A stretch of DNA of 64,000 nucleotides from Chitinophagales bacterium. GTDB lineage: Bacteria; Bacteroidota; Bacteroidia; Chitinophagales; JADIYW01. The notes below the pieces were generated by a model that was not told the origin of the DNA, made no database searches, and saw only the letters and a list, made by a program, of their open reading frames with translations. Shown piece by piece: positions 22,326 through 55,456 of this stretch. How positions within the stretch are numbered: position 1 is the first letter of the stretch; each line of letters opens with the position of its first letter. Position numbers and translations under genes: made by a program. Where the stretch lies: the NCBI GenBank assembly GCA_046329815.1, contig JAXLTY010000002.1:1198750-1262749 (forward strand), written 5' to 3'.

Positions 22326-24854
22326 ATGAAAAATCTAACAATAAAATTAATATGCTTAGTATTATTTTATAATATTTTAATTACTAAAGCACAAACACAA
22401 AACCCTCTTGATGACTGTATTTATACAGGCACACCACCATTAGTACTAGAAGGATACAATAGTGGAACAACTGCAGCTACCGGACAAATTGATTTTAACA
22501 CGACTCCTTCAGCGCCTAATCTTTTCTATAGAAATAGAATAATAGTTGGAGATCCAAATGGATCAACTAGTATTGGTTCTGAACCAACAAATCTTTCTGA
22601 TTTATACAATAGCATACCATTTGGCACAAAATTATTACCTTATCAAAGGTCTATGTTCCAATCTTATGGTGGTGTGGTTCATGATATCTCTGATGGGCGA
22701 AATGCAATATCAAGTTTAATACGTTTAAATGGCTTAGGTGTTTCATTTGGTACAATTTCTGAAGCCAGATACGATCAATTTCCTGATGGATCTGGCGGAA
22801 CAATAAAAGCAGCATATAATTTTGGTGTTCATGGTCAACATTCATTTTCAGACTATGCTGGTGGTACACTACCAGGTGGTGCTACTGATTATCAGACAGC
22901 AGGCGGTTATTTTATAAATTATCTTGCAGATAGTAAGGCTGTTTTTGGTCCTGTATTAAGGTTTCATGCTGGAGTTATTGGTGCGATACAAAATCAAGAA
23001 GGCAGTACAAGTTCTGCAGGCAATGCTGCTGTAATGGCAATTGACGATACAAAAGGAGAAGATCTAAATAATAATGGACTAAACTACGCCGGTTTATTTT
23101 CAGGCAGAGGATTATTTACCAGCCGAGTACGAATAGGATTGGTTGGTATCTCGCCCGCATCATCTGGTGTTACAACGGCTCTGCTGCATATTGATGGTAC
23201 TGGTATTACGGACGATGTTACCGGAGTTGTTGGCAGAAATGTATTACGTGTTGTTGGATTAACTGACAATAAAGAAAAGAGAGTGTTAGTATTAGATGAC
23301 GAAGATTATGTTCGAACCCAACCTTTTATATCATCCTGTACAGACAATTCATATAATTTAAATCATATAAATGGTACAAAGGATGACTTGGAATGTGGCA
23401 GAATTTGGGACAATGGCACTAATTCAAGCTCCGGTCAGGTTGGTATCAACTTTCCTACATTTGCATCAATAAACGCAACAATTAATTATACCGGCACAGC
23501 TCAGGACAATACAGGTGTAGATATAGTAACAACCGGTAGATTCAGAGCAATGAATATCACGCCACAATCGACTCCAACGCCTTCAATTGTTGGTATGGAT
23601 GATAAGAATGAATTAATTAAAATACCTTTTATATCATCATGCACAGACAATTCGTACAATCTAAACCATATAAATCTTGCAAAAGATGGCTTAGAATGTG
23701 GTAGAATTTGGGACAATGGTACTAATTCAACCTCTGGTCAGATCGGTATTAACTTCCCTACATTTGCATCGATAAACGCAACAGTTAATTATAGTGGCGC
23801 AGATCAGGATAATACAGGTGTAGATATAGTAACAACCGGTAGATTCAGAGCAATGAATATCACGCCACAATCGACTCCAACGCTTTCAATTGTTGGTATG
23901 GATGACAAGAATGAATTAATTAAAATACCGTATCCATCTACAGGATCATCTTATATTACAGCTAATTGCACTACTAGAAATCGTGTACCTAAAATACTGG
24001 CGAACGGTTCGCCAAATATGACATGCAGTCAAATATTTGATAATGGCACAAGCGTTGGTATTGGTACAACAACTGGTTTTGGTTATTTTGCAACACCTTA
24101 CAATGTCATTCATCCATGGCAACCATTGGTTCCGATAATAGGCAACCTAAAATTAAAAGTTAATGGTGTTACAATGAGCACCGGATATTTACTTGCTTCT
24201 GATTTAAGGTATAAAAAAAATATCAAGCCAATTGTAAATGCATTAGACAGAATAAAACTATTAAATGGAGTAACATATGAATGGAAAAAAGATGAATTTA
24301 AAGATAAAGATTTTGACGCATCAAGTCAGATAGGTTTTATTGCTCAAGAGGTAGAAAAAGTAATACCACAAGCAGTAATAAAAGATGATGAAGGTTATTA
24401 CGCAATGAATTATACGATGTTAATTCCTGTTCTTACGGAAGCTATTAAAGAACAACAATCTATAATAGATAAACAACAAAAAGCAATGGAAGATTTAAAA
24501 ACTAAATTATCTGCTTTAGAAAATAATGTTGATAGATGTTGCTTAAAATCTATTGGCAATGTTTCTATGGATCAAATACCATTGAATAAAGAAATTAAAC
24601 TCTATCAAAATATTCCAAACCCCTTTACCGAAGTAACAGAAATTAAATTTTATTTACCGGAAACAATTAAACAAGCAAGTCTAATTATTTATGACCTTCA
24701 AGGAAAGGAAATACTAAAAATGGATGTTACCGAACGTAATAATGCTTCAATAAAAATTAATGGGAAAGAATTAGCAGCAGGAATGTATATTTATTCTTTA
24801 ATTGCAGAGAATAAAGAAATAGACAGCAAACGAATGATCTTAACGAGTAAATAG
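22326..24854 (+). CDS. Secreted tail-fiber-like protein: signal peptide, 2 x 101-aa repeat, peptidase S74 intramolecular-chaperone-like domain, coiled coil, T9SS type-A C-terminal sorting domain
   Basis: Has a signal peptide (MKNLTIKLICLVLFYNILITKAQ). An S74-like block runs from about nt 24198 (SDLRYKKNIKPI...LLNGVTYEWK...QIGFIAQEVEKVIPQAV...YAMNYTMLIPVLTEAIKEQQ). The CTD reads LYQNIPNPFTE...LIIYDLQGKE...GMYIYSL. Confidence 0.7.
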   Translation: MKNLTIKLICLVLFYNILITKAQTQNPLDDCIYTGTPPLVLEGYNSGTTAATGQIDFNTTPSAPNLFYRNRIIVGDPNGSTSIGSEPTNLSDLYNSIPFGTKLLPYQRSMFQSYGGVVHDISDGRNAISSLIRLNGLGVSFGTISEARYDQFPDGSGGTIKAAYNFGVHGQHSFSDYAGGTLPGGATDYQTAGGYFINYLADSKAVFGPVLRFHAGVIGAIQNQEGSTSSAGNAAVMAIDDTKGEDLNNNGLNYAGLFSGRGLFTSRVRIGLVGISPASSGVTTALLHIDGTGITDDVTGVVGRNVLRVVGLTDNKEKRVLVLDDEDYVRTQPFISSCTDNSYNLNHINGTKDDLECGRIWDNGTNSSSGQVGINFPTFASINATINYTGTAQDNTGVDIVTTGRFRAMNITPQSTPTPSIVGMDDKNELIKIPFISSCTDNSYNLNHINLAKDGLECGRIWDNGTNSTSGQIGINFPTFASINATVNYSGADQDNTGVDIVTTGRFRAMNITPQSTPTLSIVGMDDKNELIKIPYPSTGSSYITANCTTRNRVPKILANGSPNMTCSQIFDNGTSVGIGTTTGFGYFATPYNVIHPWQPLVPIIGNLKLKVNGVTMSTGYLLASDLRYKKNIKPIVNALDRIKLLNGVTYEWKKDEFKDKDFDASSQIGFIAQEVEKVIPQAVIKDDEGYYAMNYTMLIPVLTEAIKEQQSIIDKQQKAMEDLKTKLSALENNVDRCCLKSIGNVSMDQIPLNKEIKLYQNIPNPFTEVTEIKFYLPETIKQASLIIYDLQGKEILKMDVTERNNASIKINGKELAAGMYIYSLIAENKEIDSKRMILTSK
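23322..23927 (+). repeat. In-frame tandem duplication, 2 x 303 bp (101 aa), inside the tail-fiber-like gene
   Basis: Units 23322-23624 and 23625-23927 both start PFISSCTDNSYNLNHIN. The distal ~119 bp (23508-23626 vs 23811-23929) differ at only 2 positions. The proximal part is clearly more diverged. Confidence 0.9.
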
Positions 24855-30770: not shown

Positions 30771-31178
30771 ATGAACAAAGATTTACCTCAACTTATTACC
30801 TACAACTCTATACAACCTTTTGAAGGAAAATCGATTACTGTCAATGAAAAAGAAGCATTGAATATCTTTCCTGTCAAACGTATTTATTGGATAAAATATT
30901 TTGCAGATGAGATTACATACAGTGAACATGCACATAAATCATTACGGCAAATCATTATAGCTATTGAAGGAAAAGTCGATATTCAGTTAAAAAGCATCGA
31001 TGAGGCAACGTATCATTTTACGCTGGATGACAGTTCGAAAGGTTTATATATTCCACCTATGTTCTGGAAAAAAATTGAATATATAAAGCCATGCAACCTG
31101 ATGTGCTTAGCATCTAAAGAATTTGATGAATATGATTACATTCGTAACTACGAAGACTTTAAAAATTTTCAAAAGTAA
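30771..31178 (+). CDS. FdtA/WxcM-like sugar 3,4-ketoisomerase (cupin)
   Basis: Carries VKRIYWI...HAHKSLRQIIIAIEGKV...GLYIPPMFW...DEYDYIR, characteristic of TDP-4-keto-6-deoxyhexose 3,4-isomerases. Confidence 0.7.
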   Translation: MNKDLPQLITYNSIQPFEGKSITVNEKEALNIFPVKRIYWIKYFADEITYSEHAHKSLRQIIIAIEGKVDIQLKSIDEATYHFTLDDSSKGLYIPPMFWKKIEYIKPCNLMCLASKEFDEYDYIRNYEDFKNFQK

Positions 31179-31183
31179 GCAGC

Positions 31184-32008
31184 ATGCGCTTAGCATTAGG
31201 ACAACTATTGGTAGAAGGTGGTGAACCTGAACGTAACTTCGAGCGCGCTGAAAAAATGATTCAGCAAGCTGCTGAACAAAAAGCAGATTTTATATTATTG
31301 CCTGAAACGATTGATTTTGCATGGACACATCCGTCTTCAGTAAATGAAGCACAAACCATTCCCGGAAATTTCAGCGATTTATTTTGTGATTTGGCAAAAA
31401 AATATGCTATTCATATTGGTGTTGGCCTGACAGAAAAAGTACAAACTCATCATTTTAATTCAGCTATTTTAATTAATGAAAAAGGTGAAATATATGGCAA
31501 GCATCACAAAATAAATTTATTAGAAGTTGAGTTTCCTTTTTACAAAATTGGTCAGAAGTTGGAAGTATTTGACACACCTTTTGGCAAGATCGGTTTAAAT
31601 ATTTGTGCTGATAACTATTATGATGCATTACATATCGGACACACATTAGCGCGAATGGGCGCACAAATTATTTTATCACCATCATCGTGGACGGTTGATT
31701 ATCACATTACAGAAAACGATGACCCTTATTACGACAAATGGTTCAAGCCGTTTCATACTTTGGCATCATATTATGATATTATCGTAGCGAGTACAACTAG
31801 CGTTGGTTATATTGTTGGCGGTCCTTATGAAGGCAAAAAAATGATCGGCTGTTCTTTGGTTGTTGGAAAAGATGGTGTCATTGCACAAGGTAAAAAAAAT
31901 GAATTTGCAGGTGATTTAATTATTGTTGATATTGATATACCTGTCAGAAATGAAAAAGGCACGCAAATAGGAAAAATGTTATCACAAAAAGGTTATAAAT
32001 TTGACTGA
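31184..32008 (+). CDS. Carbon-nitrogen hydrolase (nitrilase superfamily)
   Basis: The Glu-Lys-Cys triad contexts are present: LLPETIDF, KHHKINLL and IGLNICADNYY. Confidence 0.8.
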   Translation: MRLALGQLLVEGGEPERNFERAEKMIQQAAEQKADFILLPETIDFAWTHPSSVNEAQTIPGNFSDLFCDLAKKYAIHIGVGLTEKVQTHHFNSAILINEKGEIYGKHHKINLLEVEFPFYKIGQKLEVFDTPFGKIGLNICADNYYDALHIGHTLARMGAQIILSPSSWTVDYHITENDDPYYDKWFKPFHTLASYYDIIVASTTSVGYIVGGPYEGKKMIGCSLVVGKDGVIAQGKKNEFAGDLIIVDIDIPVRNEKGTQIGKMLSQKGYKFD

Positions 32009-32015
32009 ATTTTAC

Positions 32016-33191
32016 ATGCATCCAGCTCCATCAGATAATTTTACAGAATGTACAAGATGTGTACAAGACACAACCGTTCCCGGAATTGAATTTGATAAAA
32101 ATGGCGTTTGTAATTTTTGTCATGGTCATGATGAGTTGTGTAAAATTTTTCCAAATGAAGAACGCGGTCAAAAATTTCTTTCCAACCTTTTCTATAAAAT
32201 TAAAAAAGATGGAAAAGATAAACCGTATGATTGTATAGTTGGTATCAGTGGTGGCCGCGATAGCACTTATTTGTTATGGTGTTGTGTAAAATTATGGAAA
32301 CTTCGTCCTTTGGCAGTTCACTTCAATGATGGTTTCGACAATCCTGTTGCAGGCGAAAATATGCTGAAAGCTGTAGAAAAATTAGGTGTAAAATTAATCA
32401 CGATTACTTCTGACTGGCGCGAAGCAAAAGACCTGAAAATAACTTTTTTAAAAGCATCCACACCGGATTTAAATTTAGGAACTGATATTGGCATTGCTTC
32501 CAGCTTGTATTCAGTTGCGCACAAAGAAAACATCAAACATATCTTAATTGGTCAATCTTTCAGAACAGAAGGCATCAAACCGCTTTCCTGGGCATTTTTT
32601 GATGGTGATTATTTACGAAATGTTCAGCAAAAATTAGGAACCATTGCATTGCGAAAATGGCAGCCAAATGACGCAGGTTTTAATTTTGGTATTAAAGAAT
32701 TATTCTATTATTCAGTTATCAAAAATATCAAGACATACACGCCATTTTATTATTTTCCTTACATCCGAAAAGAAGGGCAAGCTATTATAGAAAAGGAATT
32801 GGATTGGGTTTATCCTGGTGCACATTACTTTGATGATTTGTATCACAGCTTAATAAAATATATTCATCGCGTAAAATTCAATATCGACATGAACATGAAC
32901 AGTGATTCAGGAATGGTGCGTTCTGGTCAGTTAGCAAGGCAAGTTGCATTGCAAAGAAAACATGGAATCTATGCGATTGAAGATCCAAAAGTCATTGACC
33001 TTTGTATTAAACGACTGGCTTTAACAAAAGAAGAATTTGATAGTTATATGCAACTGCCTGTTAAAACATTTCTTGATTACAAAACATCATATCCAATTAT
33101 ACGTTTGATGCGATTACCGATTTATATTTTAAGCCAATTGCATCTGATTCCTAAGATTACTTACTATAAATATTTTATATTTGGGAAATAA
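32016..33191 (+). CDS. N-acetyl sugar amidotransferase (PP-loop ATP pyrophosphatase, WbuX/PseA-like)
   Basis: Has an N-terminal Zn-ribbon (CTRCVQDTTVPGIEFDKNGVCNFC) and the PP-loop ISGGRDSTYL. ATG is at 32016; the track's TTG at 32001 overlaps the upstream stop. Confidence 0.8.
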   Translation: MHPAPSDNFTECTRCVQDTTVPGIEFDKNGVCNFCHGHDELCKIFPNEERGQKFLSNLFYKIKKDGKDKPYDCIVGISGGRDSTYLLWCCVKLWKLRPLAVHFNDGFDNPVAGENMLKAVEKLGVKLITITSDWREAKDLKITFLKASTPDLNLGTDIGIASSLYSVAHKENIKHILIGQSFRTEGIKPLSWAFFDGDYLRNVQQKLGTIALRKWQPNDAGFNFGIKELFYYSVIKNIKTYTPFYYFPYIRKEGQAIIEKELDWVYPGAHYFDDLYHSLIKYIHRVKFNIDMNMNSDSGMVRSGQLARQVALQRKHGIYAIEDPKVIDLCIKRLALTKEEFDSYMQLPVKTFLDYKTSYPIIRLMRLPIYILSQLHLIPKITYYKYFIFGK

Positions 33192-34819
33192 TGTACATAC
33201 TCGGAATTAACGGCGGATTTGGTGGCGGCTATCAGGATGGATGCGCATGCTTATATGCAGATGGAAAAATCATGGCTGCAGTTGAAGAAGAACGCTTAAA
33301 TAAAATAAAATTTTCTACCGGAATTTTTCCTTTGTTGTCGATAAAAGAAGTTTTATCGCTGGCGAATATTTCCATGCAAGATATCAGTATTGTTGCATTT
33401 CATGGCGTGACATGGCAAGGAAATATTGAAGAAGATATTCGTAATTTTTTGTTGCATCATTTTGGTTATTGTCCAACTATAAAACGTTTTCACCATCACA
33501 ACGCGCATGCAGCAAGTAGTTTTTATTTATCCGGTTTTGACGAAGCATTGGTTTTTACAATGGATAATTCCGGCGATGGAATTTCATCGCAAATTATGCT
33601 TGGAAAGAATGGCAAATTAGAATTAGTAAAAAACTGGGAACGACCAATAAGTTTTGGTGCTTTTTATTCTGCTATTACACAATTGGCAGGTTTTAATCGC
33701 GATGCCGATGAATATAAATTAATGGGCCTGGCTCCTTTCGGAAATCCTGACGCTTATGATTTTTCTGATTTTCTGTTTTATACAACAGATGGAAACTATG
33801 AACTGAATAAAAATTATATTTATCCTGTTGAACAAGGGAAATCGTTTCCGAATAAGCAAATTCCATTATACAGTGATGCTCTTTTGCAAAAACTGGAAAT
33901 TGAAAATTCCTGTGCAATCAGAAATACGCAAATTCAAAAAGATTTAGCAGCATCAGCACAAAAACAATTAGAAAAGACAGTTATTGAATGGATCAACTTC
34001 TGGATCAAAAAAACAGGCGTAAAAAATATTTGCCTTGCTGGAGGCGTTGCCATGAATTGTGTATTGAATCAAAAAATTGCTGAAAACACTGAAACAGAAC
34101 AATTATTTATTACACCATTTTCCGGCGATCAGGGTGTGAGTATCGGAAATGCTTTTCTTGCCGGAATTGAAAATAATATTGTACCAAACAACAAAAGTTT
34201 TGCTGCCTACTCAGGAAGATGTTATTCGGTTGAAGAAGTGGAAATCATTTTAGAACAAAATAAAATTTCATTCAGAAAAACAGACAATCATATTGACTTA
34301 GCTGCACGATATATTGCAGATGGAAAAATAATCGGCTGGTTTCAAGGTAACTCTGAAATTGGAGCTCGGGCACTTGGAAACCGCAGCATTTTAGCCAATC
34401 CGGCAATTAAAGGCATGAAAGATAAGATCAATAAATCTATAAAATTCAGAGCATCATTTCGTCCGTTTTGTCCAAGCGTTTTAGAAGAAGATTTTGCTGT
34501 TTATTTTGAATCAAAATTACCTGATTTACCGTATATGAATCGCACGGTAAACTGTAAAGAAATTACTCAAAAAGAGCTGACAGAAATTGTGCACATCGAT
34601 AAAACTGCGCGCATACAAACGGTTTCTTCTGAAAATAATGCTATCTTTCATCAATTATTGATACAACTAAAAAAGCATACTGGTCACGGAGTCGTATTAA
34701 ACACGAGTTTAAATATTCGTAACCAACCGATGGCTTATGATATAAATGATGCGCTGACTGCCTTATTTACAAGCGGTTTGGACGCTTTGTTTATTGAACA
34801 TATTTTGATTGAAAAATAA
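33191..34819 (+). CDS. Carbamoyltransferase (NodU/CmcH/TobZ family)
   Basis: Has the N-terminal ILGINGG...DGCACLYADGKIMAAVEEERLNKIK, which is ASKHA/Kae1-like. The C-terminal YrdC-like half contains GNRSILANP. Confidence 0.85.
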   Translation: MYILGINGGFGGGYQDGCACLYADGKIMAAVEEERLNKIKFSTGIFPLLSIKEVLSLANISMQDISIVAFHGVTWQGNIEEDIRNFLLHHFGYCPTIKRFHHHNAHAASSFYLSGFDEALVFTMDNSGDGISSQIMLGKNGKLELVKNWERPISFGAFYSAITQLAGFNRDADEYKLMGLAPFGNPDAYDFSDFLFYTTDGNYELNKNYIYPVEQGKSFPNKQIPLYSDALLQKLEIENSCAIRNTQIQKDLAASAQKQLEKTVIEWINFWIKKTGVKNICLAGGVAMNCVLNQKIAENTETEQLFITPFSGDQGVSIGNAFLAGIENNIVPNNKSFAAYSGRCYSVEEVEIILEQNKISFRKTDNHIDLAARYIADGKIIGWFQGNSEIGARALGNRSILANPAIKGMKDKINKSIKFRASFRPFCPSVLEEDFAVYFESKLPDLPYMNRTVNCKEITQKELTEIVHIDKTARIQTVSSENNAIFHQLLIQLKKHTGHGVVLNTSLNIRNQPMAYDINDALTALFTSGLDALFIEHILIEK

Positions 34820-35731
34820 ATGCCTGTTTTATCGATTGTCATACCATGTTATAATAGTGCGGAAAATATTGCCGACTTGCAAATTGCATTGGAAGCATTA
34901 GCCAAACAAATCAATAATTATTCTTTGGAAATTATTCTGGTAGATGATGGTTCTAAAGATGATACTTACAATAAATTAATTCAGTTTTCAGAAACAACTG
35001 ATTTAAAAATCATTATTGTAAAATTGACCGGAAATTTTGGTTCGTATAATACTTTCTTAGCCGGTTTGAGTTATGGCACCGGTGATGTCTATGCGCATAT
35101 GCATCCTGATATGCAAGATCCGCCTGAACATTTAGTAGAGATGCTAAATTATTATGAAAAAGGTATAAAGTTTGTAATTGGCCAGCGCGTTGAAAGAGAA
35201 GATAAAAACTTCAACCAGTTGTTTGCGCATTTTTATCATTGGCTGATAAAAAAAATTGGATTGACGCATATTCCTGAAGGTGGTTACGATCTGATTTTAT
35301 TTGACAAAGCATTGCGTAATCATGTTGTCAATATGAATGAAAAGAATGCCAATTTAGTGTATTTAATTTCATGGCTGCAATATCCGTTTGTTACGGTTCC
35401 AATTACACGCATCAGCAGAAAAAAAGGTAAATCACAATGGACATTCAGCAAAAAATCAAAGTTGCTATTTGATTCAATAGTCGCATTTTCTTACACACCA
35501 ATACGTTGGATGACTTATACATCTATGTTTGTGTTCATTGCATCTATAGTATTTTTTATTTACTTATTATTTTCTAACAAGCTATCTATCTATTTAAGTT
35601 TGATTTTATTTTTTGGCAACCTGATATTGATATTTATGAGCATTGTTGGCGAATATTTATGGCGCACATTAGATGCTGCAAGAAACCGTCCGAATTTCGT
35701 TGTTGATAAGGTTCAATCTAATAAATCTTAA
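34820..35731 (+). CDS. Glycosyltransferase family 2, polyprenyl-phosphate sugar transferase type (ArnC/GtrB-like)
   Basis: Shows LSIVIPCYNSAENI, VDDGSKDDT and a DxD-like PDMQDPPE. The tail reads RISRKKGKSQWTF and is followed by two C-terminal TM helices. Confidence 0.8.
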   Translation: MPVLSIVIPCYNSAENIADLQIALEALAKQINNYSLEIILVDDGSKDDTYNKLIQFSETTDLKIIIVKLTGNFGSYNTFLAGLSYGTGDVYAHMHPDMQDPPEHLVEMLNYYEKGIKFVIGQRVEREDKNFNQLFAHFYHWLIKKIGLTHIPEGGYDLILFDKALRNHVVNMNEKNANLVYLISWLQYPFVTVPITRISRKKGKSQWTFSKKSKLLFDSIVAFSYTPIRWMTYTSMFVFIASIVFFIYLLFSNKLSIYLSLILFFGNLILIFMSIVGEYLWRTLDAARNRPNFVVDKVQSNKS

Positions 35732-36938
35732 TACTATTTTCTTTCAAAGAAGTTGCTTTCAGATTTTCAGCAACAATTTCTGCCATCATATTATAACCTT
35801 TTGGCGTATGATGATGATCGTTATAGTAATAATATTCGTAAATCTTTTTACTATTATCAGGAATGATTTTTTTATAATCTGGCGTTAAATCCACAAATGG
35901 CATTTTACTATTACTTAAGCTATCTTTCAATGCATCTGAAAAAACATAATGATATCTTGTCGTATTTATTTCCGGAAGCAATGGTAAATAAACAACTAAA
36001 AAATGTGTATTATTTTTCAATAAATCCTGTTGGAAAGCATTAAGATGCTGCATCATTTTATTGATTTCTACAGTTCGTTTTTTTGCATTACTTTTAGATG
36101 TATTTTGCAGTATCATATTTTTCATCAACAAACCATTATCCAATATTCTATAAATATGGCTGATAGCTAAGAAATATTCTTTAATTGGCATTTTCCCTTG
36201 ATTGGAAGCAATTTCAAACTCAGCAATATCACAAATATTAACTTCCATAATCACTAAGTCTGCATTCCATTTTTTCAAAACATTTTTGTATAATGTAGTT
36301 TCAAACATAGGATTGCTGCCGCATTTTCCACCATTTATAATTGTTACTTTTTTTACAGTATTATCCAGTTTCGCTTGTAATAACTTTGGGAAAGTAGAAT
36401 CTTCTCCGGCGCCAAAACCTTCCATAAATGAATCGCCTAAAGTAACGATCCTGAATTCGGTACTATCTTTTTTTAAAGTCGGCAACTCGCCTCTTAATCC
36501 AATTGAATTATATTTTACAGGTATTTTAAAATCCATTGTTTCATAAAAAAATTCCTGATATGGCTTTGCACCATTTTCCCAATTATTCACCGGTGGCTTT
36601 AAACCAATCAGCGTAAAAACCTTAACCTGCTTGTCACGCATATATTCTGAAAAATAAACACCGCGTTCATTTTCCATATAATTATTCATTTTCTTAAATA
36701 CAAATGTGAACGCAAATTCTGACAAAACAAGCAAAGAAAGTAAGATCATTAAATTGTACTTAATAATCGTAGTGATTTTTTTATTCTTAATAAATCGGAG
36801 AAAAAATACTGCAACAAAATAAACAAGCAAATAAAATAAAACTGTAGTAGTAAAAAATGAAATACCGTAAGAATACAATATTAAGAAGTGTATTGTGTAA
36901 ATTAAGACAAGCACCAATGTATATAATTTATTAAACAT
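35718..36938 (-). CDS. Membrane-anchored SGNH/GDSL hydrolase or acyltransferase
   Basis: Has N-terminal TM helices and blocks IVTLGDSFMEGFG (I), NGGKCGSNP (II) and NDHHHTPKGY (V). Met24 at 36938 is preferred because it removes the 61-nt overlap with the upstream gene. Confidence 0.55.
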   Translation of the reverse strand: MFNKLYTLVLVLIYTIHFLILYSYGISFFTTTVLFYLLVYFVAVFFLRFIKNKKITTIIKYNLMILLSLLVLSEFAFTFVFKKMNNYMENERGVYFSEYMRDKQVKVFTLIGLKPPVNNWENGAKPYQEFFYETMDFKIPVKYNSIGLRGELPTLKKDSTEFRIVTLGDSFMEGFGAGEDSTFPKLLQAKLDNTVKKVTIINGGKCGSNPMFETTLYKNVLKKWNADLVIMEVNICDIAEFEIASNQGKMPIKEYFLAISHIYRILDNGLLMKNMILQNTSKSNAKKRTVEINKMMQHLNAFQQDLLKNNTHFLVVYLPLLPEINTTRYHYVFSDALKDSLSNSKMPFVDLTPDYKKIIPDNSKKIYEYYYYNDHHHTPKGYNMMAEIVAENLKATSLKENSIKIY

Positions 36939-36946
36939 ATAAACAC

Positions 36947-37966
36947 TTAAATACCAGAAACAAATAACTTCAATACTTCTACGCAAACAGAAGTAGTAAT
37001 AACACAATTAACATCATACGCTTGCCAGATATCATTCTTGTCATCGTGAAATTGCCAAATAACCTGGTTTGAATTCCAACTTCCATTTTTTGAAAGATTA
37101 GCAACTATAAAACTAATTCCTTTCTGAATAGCATCACTATTCTTTTTATCTAAGCATAGCGTTTTCAAAGCCAATGCTGTTGAATATACATCTTCATTTT
37201 TACTCCAGGAACCATTACTATTTTGTTCCTGCTTAACATATGACATGCCTTTTTCATAACAGGTATGTAATAGTTTTTTTTTATGCAGCAAACTCATAAA
37301 CTGAAATATAGAATAATACTGATCAGGATAAAAAAAAGAACTCCAACTTCCGTCTTGTTGCTGCGATGCTTTAATTAACTGTTCACTAATTAAGTGTTCA
37401 TTATTACTATCTAATAAAACGTGATAAATATTTGCATTTACTTCAGGATGTATTTGTAAATTATTTTGAGAAGAAGGAACTGTCTCCATTTTCTTTCCTT
37501 TCATATCAGTTATAAATGTAACAAATGCAGGAAAATAGACATCATTATATCTGCATATCCGCTTGTAATTCGTTAGCACATCATTAGATCGATATATATC
37601 CAGAGCTCTCAATGTTCTTAAAGCAAAAGCCGTATCATCAGCATCTACAAAAAACGGATTATTACCGGTTTCGTTATAGTAACCTCTTGGTGAGTAGCCC
37701 CATTGTCCGTTATATTCTTCTGAAAGAATTCTCATCAAAATGATAGTGCGCTCCATTTCATTCAAATCATCTGATAGCGCATCAACAATATGAAAAGCTG
37801 AAAATAAATGTCCTTTATCATGTGAAAATTTAGGATTGCCATCTTTTCCAAGACACGAAAGACCATAATTACCTGACAATAATTGTTTGCGAATAAAATC
37901 TGTTCCTGATCTGATCGCACTTAAAATATTTTCTTTTTCCGTATCGCTCATCATTTGGTTAAACAC
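36947..37966 (-). CDS. Prenyltransferase/squalene-cyclase-repeat (alpha/alpha toroid) protein with a DxDDTA motif
   Basis: Shows repeated QW-like motifs (NGQWGYSP, DGSWSSFF, NGSWSKNE, NGSWNSNQ) and FFVDADDTAFALRTL. Confidence 0.5.
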   Translation of the reverse strand: MFNQMMSDTEKENILSAIRSGTDFIRKQLLSGNYGLSCLGKDGNPKFSHDKGHLFSAFHIVDALSDDLNEMERTIILMRILSEEYNGQWGYSPRGYYNETGNNPFFVDADDTAFALRTLRALDIYRSNDVLTNYKRICRYNDVYFPAFVTFITDMKGKKMETVPSSQNNLQIHPEVNANIYHVLLDSNNEHLISEQLIKASQQQDGSWSSFFYPDQYYSIFQFMSLLHKKKLLHTCYEKGMSYVKQEQNSNGSWSKNEDVYSTALALKTLCLDKKNSDAIQKGISFIVANLSKNGSWNSNQVIWQFHDDKNDIWQAYDVNCVITTSVCVEVLKLFVSGI

Positions 37967-52285: not shown

Positions 52286-55200
52286 TTAATGTGTAATGAC
52301 AATTTCTTTGGTAACCGTATTATTGCCATCCGAAATTTTTATCAGGTATAAGCCATTCGATAAATTGCTGATATCAATAGTAGCTGAATTAGCACTGAAA
52401 GCATTTTTAAATACTTCCGTTCCATTGCTTTTGAATATACTTATGGATTGGATATTTTTTGCATCATTCAGGTTGATGGTAATGGCATTGCTGCCCGGAT
52501 TTGGATAAACAGTTGCTTTAAGCGCTGACTTAGCCGTTGAATTTCCCTGGTTTGGCGAACCAGGTGCAAAACCGGTTGGGTTTACAGTGAGTTTGGCAGC
52601 AGCAGAATAACCTATACAACCTGCTGTATTCGTTCCTTTACAACGGAAATAACTTTGATCAAAACTATATGGTGTATTAGTGATAGATAAAACTTGTGTT
52701 GTTGTGCCACTAAAATAGCCGCCGTTGTTAATATCATTGTAAACAGAAGAGCCGGCTAATTTTTGCTGCCATTTGTATTGTAATGTTGAATCTGTTGATT
52801 GTGCAGGAAAATTAAAACTGCCATGTTCATTTACCGTTCCGTTTGTTGGATTTGCATAAAAAGATGGTGTGTTAAATGTTAAAACTGCCACTTGTGTATA
52901 AAGTGTACAACCATCTACATTTGATATTTTACATCTAAATGATTTTCCATTTAAACCTGCTACTGTGGTTGGAATGGTCATAGTTCCGGTCGTTGTTCCA
53001 CTAACGCTTGTACCTAAAACAATTGGAGTAACATTTACCCAACTACTGATATTATATACTTCCCATTGATACGTTGGAGCAGGACTGCCGCTTAATTGTT
53101 CGCAATAAGCTGTAAAAGAAACTGATGAGCCAACACATGCTACTTTACTTTGTGGACTGGAAAATTCGCGGATAGGTTTTAAAAATGAACAACTAGGCAT
53201 AACTTTACTTGTATCTCTAATATATAAACTTGCTTTTTTATCCATTTGACGACCTGTACCAATATAGCTTCGTTGTGCAGGTGTTTTAGATATGTTTAAT
53301 GTTTCATTCCAAAACATTAATTCTAATTCATGCATGGAATTTGTAGTTGCATTTGGATTAATAATGTGCATTAATCCAAGTGCATGTCCTAGTTCATGTA
53401 AAATATCTGAGTAGAAATCATATTTCCCACTTGGTTTGGTATCATTGATGCCATAATGCCAAATTATTCCCGTCATTTTAATACCTATGTCTGAAGCTTG
53501 CCTTCGTGGAATGCCACCACATGTAGCGACACATGAAGTAGTTTCCATTAGTGTACCATTTGCTAAAGTATTATCTATGTATAGCATGCTTATAGTATCG
53601 AGATTGTTTATCGAGCCATCTGCAAAATATTGATAATTGTTATAATCATCTTTTTGCAGTCGTAGATCAATTCTTAAAAATCTTGCCCATACATTTATAG
53701 CGCTGTCTATAACAGCAATGGCTTGTGGATATGGCTGTAGAGAATTTCCGAGTTTGAAAATAAATGATGAATTTTGGCAATTTCGAAATGCCCATACTAC
53801 TTTTTTCTTAGTAGATGAATTCTCTATTCCAAACTCTACATCTAAATTTGTAGTGGTGCTATCTCTAAATCCTATATCATTTACTACCTTAAATTTACCA
53901 CTGCCTGCAGTCACATCTTTTGTAAAATTTGAATTTACAATTGTTGATGGAACTTTAACCTTTATTTCAGAATCATTCCAACTTACATAATCTAATGTAT
54001 CACATCCCTGCATATATCTACTGAAGCTATCCGCATCTGGAAATAACACTTGCCCTTTTCCTCTCGTAGTCCCAAAATTAGTTCCGGTAATTGTTAAAAC
54101 CTCATTAGTACCTGCTCGTATAACCGATGGTGAAAAACCGGTTATTTTTGGTATTGGGCAAAGTGCAATGGGTGAATTATCTGTGCGGAATACATTATCA
54201 TACGATTGTATCGGACCTGCTATAGAATCGTTGCTATGGAGTTTATAACCGGTTAAAATATCGCATATCACAGGATCTACAAATTTCATTTTAGCGGTTG
54301 CCTGGCAGTTTTTTATTCTGAATTTTATATGCATCAGTTGCAAAGGTGTAGTGCCTACTGCTATGCGAGTTGGCACATATAACGAATCGTTGGTGCTTAA
54401 ATTGATGCCCACCACTGTATCTGAGATGTAGCCGGGTCCATATATTTTGTAGTTTATATTATTGAACGATGTTCCCTTTGTAGCTGTTAAATAATTTTTT
54501 ACATAGAGAGAATCGCCGAAAGCAGCTTTATCAAAATTGAGACGTACAAGTGTGCCCTCAAAATAGGTGGCCTGTGTGCCCCACACATAAATATCAAAAT
54601 CGAGATAATTAACACCGGCAGCCGTAGAATAAGCAATATTCCTGATATCAAGGTTTAGGTTTCCGCCGCTTGCAAGTTTTAGATTTGGATTTGCTTTTTT
54701 TTTTGCTTCCTGCTCTGCTTTTGCCAATTCTTTTCCTTTTATAAATAATGCTTCTCGTTTTTGTGTTTCTATTTTTATTTTTTGCAATTCTGCGTCTTTA
54801 GCTTCCTGTTCGGCTTTCTCTTTTTTTAATTGTATTTGCTGTAAGCTATCTTCTACAATATCTGTTCTATCTATAAAGTCAGTTTGTAGATTAAAGCTTT
54901 TTATAGATTTTCGCAATTCTTTTGCATTTCCAAAGTCTCCTGCCCAAGGTGCAAAGTATTTATTATCCCAACAATCTTGACAATATATAATAGCCCTATC
55001 ATGCTCAATTACCATTGTGTTTTCCATCTTTTTGTCCCACACACACCCTTTACTATTAGATACATTTTTGCCAAAAACAATACCTCTATTACCTTTCTGT
55101 GTAAAAACTGGTGGATGATTACCATGTGATGGTTTGACAGTGCTAATTGTAATCTCATCATCATCAAGAGAAGGTGCTTCACCGCCTTTTACAATTACCT

Positions 55201-55456
55201 GTACAAAGCCAAGTTTCATGCCATTGCCTTTAAAAACATTAGTTACTTCTACTAAAAGAGAAGTATAAATAGTATTTATACCTCTCTCATCTTTTACCCA
55301 ATACCCTTTGCTATCCACAACAGTACCTTCAAAAACATAATCTGCGTTTTGCAGCATGTCAGGTACTTTGGCAGGTGTTTGTTTTTCGGTTTGTGCATTC
55401 AGGTTGGCTGTAATTATTAATGCAGCAATCGCAATCAAAAATTTTAAATTTTTCAT
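52286..55456 (-). CDS. Secreted multidomain zinc metalloprotease with IPT/TIG, Ig-like repeats and T9SS type-A CTD
   Basis: Domain order: signal peptide, then a ~200-aa N-terminal domain with a CQDCW motif, then a K/E coiled coil. These are followed by an IPT-like block (ITGFSPSVIRAGTNEVLTITGTNFG) and HExxH (ILHELGHALGLMH). Two Ig-like units follow (YQWEV...FRCKISN and YKWQQ...YFRCKGTN), then the CTD VYPNPGSNAITINL...GLYLIKISDG. Confidence 0.75.
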   Translation of the reverse strand: MKNLKFLIAIAALIITANLNAQTEKQTPAKVPDMLQNADYVFEGTVVDSKGYWVKDERGINTIYTSLLVEVTNVFKGNGMKLGFVQVIVKGGEAPSLDDDEITISTVKPSHGNHPPVFTQKGNRGIVFGKNVSNSKGCVWDKKMENTMVIEHDRAIIYCQDCWDNKYFAPWAGDFGNAKELRKSIKSFNLQTDFIDRTDIVEDSLQQIQLKKEKAEQEAKDAELQKIKIETQKREALFIKGKELAKAEQEAKKKANPNLKLASGGNLNLDIRNIAYSTAAGVNYLDFDIYVWGTQATYFEGTLVRLNFDKAAFGDSLYVKNYLTATKGTSFNNINYKIYGPGYISDTVVGINLSTNDSLYVPTRIAVGTTPLQLMHIKFRIKNCQATAKMKFVDPVICDILTGYKLHSNDSIAGPIQSYDNVFRTDNSPIALCPIPKITGFSPSVIRAGTNEVLTITGTNFGTTRGKGQVLFPDADSFSRYMQGCDTLDYVSWNDSEIKVKVPSTIVNSNFTKDVTAGSGKFKVVNDIGFRDSTTTNLDVEFGIENSSTKKKVVWAFRNCQNSSFIFKLGNSLQPYPQAIAVIDSAINVWARFLRIDLRLQKDDYNNYQYFADGSINNLDTISMLYIDNTLANGTLMETTSCVATCGGIPRRQASDIGIKMTGIIWHYGINDTKPSGKYDFYSDILHELGHALGLMHIINPNATTNSMHELELMFWNETLNISKTPAQRSYIGTGRQMDKKASLYIRDTSKVMPSCSFLKPIREFSSPQSKVACVGSSVSFTAYCEQLSGSPAPTYQWEVYNISSWVNVTPIVLGTSVSGTTTGTMTIPTTVAGLNGKSFRCKISNVDGCTLYTQVAVLTFNTPSFYANPTNGTVNEHGSFNFPAQSTDSTLQYKWQQKLAGSSVYNDINNGGYFSGTTTQVLSITNTPYSFDQSYFRCKGTNTAGCIGYSAAAKLTVNPTGFAPGSPNQGNSTAKSALKATVYPNPGSNAITINLNDAKNIQSISIFKSNGTEVFKNAFSANSATIDISNLSNGLYLIKISDGNNTVTKEIVITH

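Follow-up and report, generated by a model that had tools for sequence, protein, structure and literature searches.

The classical acetamidino system consists of an N-acetyl sugar amidotransferase (NASAT; known as WbuX, WbpG, PseA or LfnA, family TIGR03573) working with WbuY, which is HisH-like, and WbuZ, which is HisF-like. To our knowledge, no amidotransferase other than NAD synthetase takes its ammonia from a glutaminase of the nitrilase fold, and all of the well-studied dedicated ammonia-donor subunits of amidotransferases that we know of use glutamine. In Thermus thermophilus, the nitrilase-like glutaminase of NAD synthetase (TTC1539) is a separate protein in tight complex with the PP-loop synthetase (TTC1538); when the synthetase is purified the glutaminase comes with it, and its presence enables the use of glutamine (PMC3376133). 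The NASAT motifs have been defined as SGGxDS and CxxC...[GN]xCxxC (PMC10607449), and the paper that reports the LpNASAT structure contains no discussion of where the ammonia comes from. Here we describe a pair of adjacent genes from a Chitinophagales bacterium (assembly GCA_046329815.1, contig JAXLTY010000002.1, positions 1,198,750 to 1,262,749; this stretch of 64,000 nucleotides is the window referred to below), in which a stand-alone carbon-nitrogen (CN) hydrolase of the nitrilase superfamily lies directly upstream of a WbuX-type gene. We think it probable, with real room for doubt, that the two products form a two-subunit amidotransferase in which the nitrilase-fold subunit is the ammonia donor.

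Set beside the classical system, the acceptor enzyme is of the same PP-loop family, with the SGGxDS and tetracysteine zinc motifs, and the glycan-cluster setting is also the same, related loci carrying DegT aminotransferases, GFO/IDH/MocA oxidoreductases and glycosyltransferases; the difference is that WbuY and WbuZ are found nowhere in this genome and a nitrilase-fold hydrolase stands in their place. The WbuX protein differs from classical NASATs as well: it belongs to a separate clade, its segment 103-116 is rewritten, it has an insertion at about 216-228, and it is barely over the family cut-off. What the locus shares with the two-subunit NAD synthetase of Thermus, here judged from sequence alone, is a free-standing nitrilase-fold gene beside one encoding a PP-loop ATP pyrophosphatase. 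It departs from both the Thermus enzyme and fused NadE in that the acceptor is a NASAT instead of NadE, and in that the hydrolase is only distantly similar to the NadE glutaminase domain (48.5 bits to the NAD+ synthase model, 35.7 bits to 5kha).

The hydrolase is a member of the nitrilase superfamily, since its profile score, its alpha-beta-beta-alpha fold and its catalytic tetrad all fit: the intact Glu-Lys-Cys triad noticed in the original prediction corresponds to E41, K109 and C141, and these residues, together with E116, are invariant among the 58 homologues aligned. The AlphaFold2 model of the monomer (predicted local distance difference test, pLDDT, 88; predicted template modelling score, pTM, 0.90) matched 5h8k, 3ivz, 2w1v and 6ypa in Foldseek with probability 1.00 and template modelling (TM) scores of 0.76-0.80. 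Closest by both sequence and fold are the Pyrococcus PH0642 amidase, the Nit2 omega-amidase and N-carbamoylputrescine amidase. Nit2 and the PH0642 amidase (1j31, 6ypa, 3ivz, 2w1v) share the catalytic tetrad, and their substrates are short amides similar to the side chain of glutamine; the nearest solved relatives, the P. horikoshii amidase (6ypa, with glutaramide bound) and Nit2, use five-carbon, glutamine-like amides. These relatives are free-standing metabolic enzymes without a partner. A homologue search gathered a family of 1,695 proteins, the best 120 of which are all at least 65% identical, and its members, where named at all, are called only “carbon-nitrogen hydrolase” or “predicted amidohydrolase.”

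The original prediction had spoken of a split NadE-like pair. The likeness in logic to NadE stands, and descent from the NadE glutaminase domain does not: against the NadE-type model NF010588 (cut-off 479 bits) the score of 48.5 bits ranked under those of archaeal nitrilase and AguB models, and a profile search of the Protein Data Bank (PDB) placed 5kha far behind 3ivz (92 bits), so that the hydrolase falls outside the NadE glutaminase branch. Because it is distant from that branch and nearer to PH0642 and Nit2, independent recruitment is likely, and the pairing with WbuX looks like an event separate from the one that produced NadE. Nor is the hydrolase a stray or spare glutaminase subunit of NadE, a possibility that was ruled out because the NadE of this genome is already a fused two-domain protein of 556 aa with a CN-hydrolase domain of its own.

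The neighboring product can be assigned to the NASAT/WbuX family from its score and from both motifs, the PP-loop being S78-G-G-R-D-S83 and the tetracysteine C12/C15/C32/C35 (with G30-V-C32), all conserved in the WbuX alignment; this agrees with the PseA-type enzyme with SGGRDS loop and zinc ribbon that was recognized at the outset. The family cut-off is passed narrowly (Table 1), the orthologue in genome G147 lies slightly under it at 199 bits, and the profile match to the LpNASAT structure (8WEX) is 84 bits. The gene junction is likewise as first described: the TGA of the hydrolase (32006-32008) is followed after 7 nt by the ATG of WbuX (32016), and an alternative TTG start at 32001 overlaps the 3' end of the hydrolase gene.

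The source assembly (4.01 Mb, rated 100% complete) has one WbuX copy, and searches with the PF00117 and PF00977 profiles found no HisH- or HisF-like gene beyond the histidine operon, either in the window or in the complete genome. With PF00977 the matches were the histidine-operon genes for HisA and HisF (G000:C2:241516-243394), about 990 kb from the pair, plus two weak matches, one a geranylgeranylglyceryl phosphate (GGGP) synthase and the other an unrelated TIM barrel; neither is a WbuZ. PF00117 returned the HisH of the histidine region (C2:236549-237103), TrpG/PabA, PurQ and larger fused enzymes of GuaA, CarA or PyrG size, and the stand-alone glutaminases among them (TrpG/PabA, PurQ, HisH) were rejected as WbuY/WbuZ. 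The classical set of WbuX, WbuY and WbuZ is not present in this genome, in which the only HisH, HisA and HisF are housekeeping copies. The statement in the original prediction that the island lacks HisH and HisF is thus borne out for the window, and no such partner is encoded just outside it. The first of the two weak PF00977 matches, a homologue of geranylgeranylglyceryl/heptaprenylglyceryl phosphate synthase, is encoded at G000:C1:1695115-1695843 (L004:976-1704; NF003198, 274 bits, above cut-off).

Orthologues of the hydrolase were surveyed at 12 genome loci (60-89% identity), drawn from Chitinophagales, Sphingobacteriales, Flavobacteriaceae, Chryseobacterium (Bacteroidota), Omnitrophota and one metagenome-assembled genome of Woesearchaeota, and at 80 metagenome loci. 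WbuX directly adjoins the hydrolase in 10 of the 12 genome loci, seven in the order hydrolase-WbuX and three in the order WbuX-hydrolase. One of the two exceptions ends with its contig, and the same assembly carries a WbuX orthologue (86% identical) with a carbamoyltransferase on another short contig; in the other (G401), a WbuX orthologue and carbamoyltransferase lie about 36 kb from the hydrolase, apparently on the same contig. In the metagenome set, WbuX adjoins the hydrolase on the same strand at 52 loci and lies 0.7-3.6 kb away at 10; another 12 are too short for a verdict, and at 6 there is no WbuX within 4-5 kb, so that the pair is retained in 62 of 68 judgeable loci. Taken together, a WbuX orthologue lies within 3.6 kb of the hydrolase in about 90% of judgeable loci, mostly adjacent and in either order, and neither HisH nor HisF was found in the flanks of any of the 12 genome or 80 metagenome loci.

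Outside the pair, the gene neighborhood varies among loci. A carbamoyltransferase adjoins the pair in 7/14 genome loci and in 20 of the 52 adjacent metagenome pairs, GT2 genes occur in 7/14 hydrolase loci and DegT-type sugar aminotransferases in 6/14; related loci also hold GFO/IDH/MocA oxidoreductases, GT4 transferases, UbiA-type prenyltransferases and B12-radical SAM enzymes. Judged by gene content, this is the setting expected for amino-sugar tailoring. The distance matrices of hydrolase and WbuX are correlated (Mantel r 0.64, a value reached by none of 2000 permutations), a correlation that is compatible with co-inheritance and does not separate functional coupling from linkage, and we give it little weight.

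The reverse survey covered 401 Bacteroidota genomes, 70 of which had a TIGR03573 match. Only three (G000, G147 and G331) contain an orthologue of the hydrolase, each time immediately 5' of a WbuX gene whose score is close to the lower end for the family, and most of the other WbuX genes adjoin HisH and HisF, both being within 3 kb of 52 WbuX genes. Genome G401 has both kinds of WbuX, with HisH and HisF next to the classical copy only. In a tree of 106 WbuX sequences, all 12 hydrolase-linked copies and one database representative form a single clade (Shimodaira-Hasegawa-like approximate likelihood ratio test, SH-aLRT, 98), whose sister is a 50-row clade (SH-aLRT 96) of mostly HisH/HisF-linked sequences. 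On this tree the hydrolase-linked clade has a single origin, and the simplest reading would be one partner swap in one WbuX lineage, followed by spread across phyla. Co-occurrence, suggested at the outset as a check on the proposal, came out in its favor: the hydrolase family is nearly always beside one WbuX clade, and that clade never has HisH or HisF nearby.

Some other WbuX-like proteins carry an ammonia supplier as a fused domain. Among the 150 best WbuX representatives there are HisF-WbuX fusions with HisF at the N-terminus (P0149, P0193, P0195, P0211 and P0249) and one protein of 996 aa (P0231) that joins WbuX to a whole asparagine synthetase (AsnB); the extra domains in this set were HisF, GT4, GT2, LPG_synthase_TM, AsnB or of unknown family. 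Among remoter Bacteroidota relatives, a protein of 678 aa (L086:7041-9077, + strand) has an N-terminal Ntn-type glutaminase domain (GATase_7/GATase_6). With open reading frames of similar length in L080, L084, L088, L089 and L090 it forms one clade of roughly 680-aa proteins from six Bacteroidota genomes, all with a WbuX-like PP-loop part at the C-terminus, the domain scan having been made on L086 only, and at these six loci no HisH, HisF or CN hydrolase was found near the gene. Since WbuX-like domains are joined to several types of glutaminase, a dedicated donor would seem normally to be needed, which makes it more likely that the hydrolase occupies that slot.

Complex prediction, made with alignments for both chains in three runs and with three controls, gave the hydrolase and WbuX a median score of 0.62 (0.54, 0.62 and 0.69), against 0.16 for the best control; in calibration, 58 of 80 solved complexes and 2 of 110 mismatched pairs reached the score mark, which the pair studied here also passes. 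The runs had at least 88% of their contacts in common, with a partner pLDDT of at least 91. The two proteins are therefore predicted to bind each other, as the original prediction would have it, and two comparisons independent of the score agree with the predicted interface. On WbuX, the predicted contact residues (102-117, 126-135, 219 and 329-335) lie just past the PP-loop strand and include 10 clade-specific conserved positions out of 23 (versus the HisH/HisF clade), compared with 35 of 368 elsewhere (Fisher p 6e-5); on the hydrolase, 14 of 23 predicted contact positions are invariant, against 59 of 251 elsewhere (p 3e-4), both p-values making the enrichment look stronger than it is, as neighboring residues and related sequences are not independent. 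The contact loops of the hydrolase at about 171-180 and 211-220 are invariant, yet they have low confidence in the monomer model, and the invariant C-terminal motifs peculiar to this hydrolase family (residues 205-219 and 239-243) fall in the predicted partner interface. The surface of WbuX predicted to bind the hydrolase (residues 102-135, positions 32319-32420) aligns with the homodimer interface in the crystal of LpNASAT (8WEX), which is formed by Tyr152, Trp157 and 166-181 in the numbering of that paper and which, according to its authors, is not conserved across the family (PMC10607449).

The replacement of WbuY and WbuZ by the CN hydrolase, as first proposed, is thus supported from several sides: by gene linkage, by the absence of HisH and HisF, by the clade tree and by the predicted complex. 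In the mechanism that we favor, the WbuX subunit would activate an N-acyl (probably N-acetyl) amino sugar by ATP-dependent adenylation of its carbonyl oxygen, while the hydrolase would cleave an amide, most likely glutamine, through a thioester at Cys141 and hand the ammonia to the activated sugar, yielding an amidine (acetamidino) group; the hydrolase would thereby fill the role that the HisH-like glutaminase and the HisF-like barrel play for most WbuX enzymes. The amide donor, the ammonia tunnel, the sugar substrate and the product are inferred.

Several points weigh against this proposal. The evidence for it is comparative and predictive throughout; the hydrolase occurs without adjacent WbuX in the six metagenome loci and in G401; and a hydrolase-WbuX fusion was found neither among the 150 best WbuX representatives, searched with a hidden Markov model of the hydrolase family, nor among longer homologues of the hydrolase, which yielded one unrelated protein of 723 aa. 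As for the predicted complex, solved structures of fused NadE may have aided it, the enrichment at the contact surfaces is less secure than its p-values, and the overlap with the LpNASAT homodimer surface fits partner docking but may reflect a patch that is merely sticky. The position outside the NadE branch and the N-carbamoyl amidases among the top fold matches leave room for a substrate different from glutamine.

This last point leads to another explanation, which we regard as rather unlikely: that within the pathway the hydrolase works on the sugar itself or on a substituent of it (for instance by taking off an N-acyl or carbamoyl group, or by turning the amidine back into an amide), with WbuX using free ammonia. 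N-carbamoylputrescine amidohydrolase is among the best Foldseek matches and N-carbamoyl-D-amino-acid hydrolases are among the profile matches; the next gene after the pair encodes a carbamoyltransferase in this operon and at roughly half of the loci; the lack of a fusion protein would be natural; and PP-loop synthetases can use free ammonia, as does the S-subunit of T. thermophilus alone (PMC3376133). Nevertheless, some half of the pairs lack a neighboring carbamoyltransferase, so that the pairing is independent of it, and such an enzyme would leave unexplained why HisH and HisF were lost in this WbuX clade alone and why clade-specific WbuX residues are concentrated where the hydrolase is predicted to touch. 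The hydrolase might instead be an ammonia donor that draws on a different amide (asparagine, alpha-ketoglutaramate, a ureido or carbamoyl compound, or another small amide), as its place in the Nit2/PH0642-like part of the superfamily might suggest. We hold this to be improbable, given the consistent use of glutamine by the dedicated donor subunits mentioned above and given that the loci offer no pointer to another amide source. Least probable of all, to the point that we would be surprised by it, is that the two proteins are functionally unrelated and adjacent as passengers of shared glycan islands. Glycan clusters are indeed mosaics of tailoring genes, and the Mantel correlation would be expected under plain co-inheritance too, but the surroundings vary while the pair itself persists at the great majority of metagenome and genome loci, across phyla and in either order.

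The carbamoyltransferase raises one further possibility, to which we assign only a slight chance: that the hydrolase, WbuX and the carbamoyltransferase act as a trio to make a guanidino-type or isourea-type sugar rather than an acetamidino sugar. The transferase would add a ureido or carbamoyl substituent, the WbuX-clade enzyme would adenylate its carbonyl, much as argininosuccinate synthetase acts on citrulline, and ammonia derived from the hydrolase would be added. The link between WbuX-like genes and carbamoyltransferases recurs beyond the hydrolase-linked clade: at L093:7995-10885 a homologue of the carbamoyltransferase comes directly after a distant WbuX-like gene (361 aa), and hydrolase, HisH and HisF are all missing there.

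The pair is part of an operon of six genes on one strand with spacings of -1 to 7 nt (Table 1). Its first gene encodes a membrane protein without a match in Pfam or NCBIfam, whose stop lies 1 nt ahead of the cupin gene and which has an orthologue in L012; the cupin gene is immediately 5' of the hydrolase in L012 and L013 too. The start of the carbamoyltransferase gene overlaps the WbuX stop by 1 nt, and the glycosyltransferase that closes the operon has sub-cut-off matches to NF047588 (150 bits) and NF007986 (117 bits). A scan of the operon for promoters and terminators found fewer promoter-like sites than in shuffled sequence and was uninformative, as is expected for a Bacteroidota-type genome.

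Table 1. Genes of the operon and codons of the functional residues (positions in the window).
Feature	Position	Strand	Evidence and remarks
Polytopic membrane protein, 442 aa	29441-30769	+	Operon gene 1; about 10 hydrophobic segments
FdtA/WxcM-C-like cupin (sugar 3,4-ketoisomerase family)	30771-31178	+	PF05523, 100.4 bits
CN hydrolase (nitrilase superfamily amidase), 274 aa	31184-32008	+	PF00795 (CN_hydrolase), 122.4 bits; cut-off 23.2 bits
Hydrolase codon E41	31304-31306		Catalytic
Hydrolase codon K109	31508-31510		Catalytic
Hydrolase codon C141	31604-31606		Catalytic
WbuX/PseA/WbpG-type NASAT, 391 aa from ATG	32016-33191	+	TIGR03573, 205.8 bits; cut-off 203.2 bits
WbuX zinc-ribbon codons	32049-32120		
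WbuX PP-loop codons	32247-32264		
NodU/CmcH-type carbamoyltransferase	33191-34819	+	PF16861, 200 bits; PF02543, 160 bits
GT2 polyprenyl-phosphate glycosyltransferase, ArnC/PgfS-like	34820-35731	+	Last operon gene; PF00535, 87 bits

Convergent with the end of the operon are two genes on the minus strand (35718-37966), one for a 429-aa SGNH/AlgX-like esterase or acyltransferase and one for a 339-aa protein that weakly resembles the C-terminal domain of squalene-hopene cyclase; SGNH homologues flank the hydrolase-WbuX pair in L017 as well. The 27 kb upstream of the operon (2110-29314) are rich in tailoring enzymes, including two Asp/Arg beta-hydroxylase-like proteins, a KAS III, an AMP-binding enzyme, a reductive-dehalogenase-like Fe-S protein, six PhyH-family dioxygenases, a WelO5-like halogenase, a methyltransferase, two radical SAM enzymes (one with a SPASM domain) and two B12-radical SAM enzymes. 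The GC content of this region is 0.28-0.34, against 0.35-0.38 beyond 42 kb, and it looks like an uncharacterized island for the tailoring of a lipid or natural product. Two large proteins (22326-24854, +, and 52286-55456, -) bear type IX secretion C-terminal sorting domains, which fits a Bacteroidota host, and one of them also has a Peptidase_S74 intramolecular chaperone domain.

WbuX-like domains also appear in settings of other kinds. One representative (P0136) is fused to an LPG_synthase_TM membrane domain, fusions to GT4 and GT2 glycosyltransferases exist among the same 150 best representatives, and at two loci (L083:7095-11120, -, and L085:7521-11540, -) a WbuX-like PP-loop domain is embedded between the adenylation and carrier domains of a 1,341-aa non-ribosomal peptide synthetase module (Condensation, AMP-binding, PP-loop, PP-binding), which suggests amide chemistry on a carrier-bound substrate.

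A literature search combining N-acetyl sugar amidotransferases or acetamidino sugars with nitrilases or carbon-nitrogen hydrolases found no paper on the hydrolase-WbuX pair, in keeping with the view in the original prediction that it had not been described. What appears to be new here, and is well supported by the sequence comparisons, is a probable two-subunit amidotransferase in which a nitrilase-fold donor serves a new family of acceptor enzyme, by a logic already known from NAD synthetase. If the proposal is correct, ammonia donors of the nitrilase fold would work for two amidotransferase families, NAD synthetase being the first and this pair the second, with or without a part for the carbamoyltransferase; the nitrilase fold would then be a reusable ammonia-donor module that was recruited independently twice. 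It would also offer a naturally occurring exchange of partners, with either HisH/HisF or a nitrilase-fold protein serving the same acceptor enzyme, useful for understanding how ammonia tunnels evolve, and it would give a function to a hydrolase family of about 1,700 proteins. The pair also marks glycan clusters, in Bacteroidota and in other phyla, that probably make amidine-bearing sugars.

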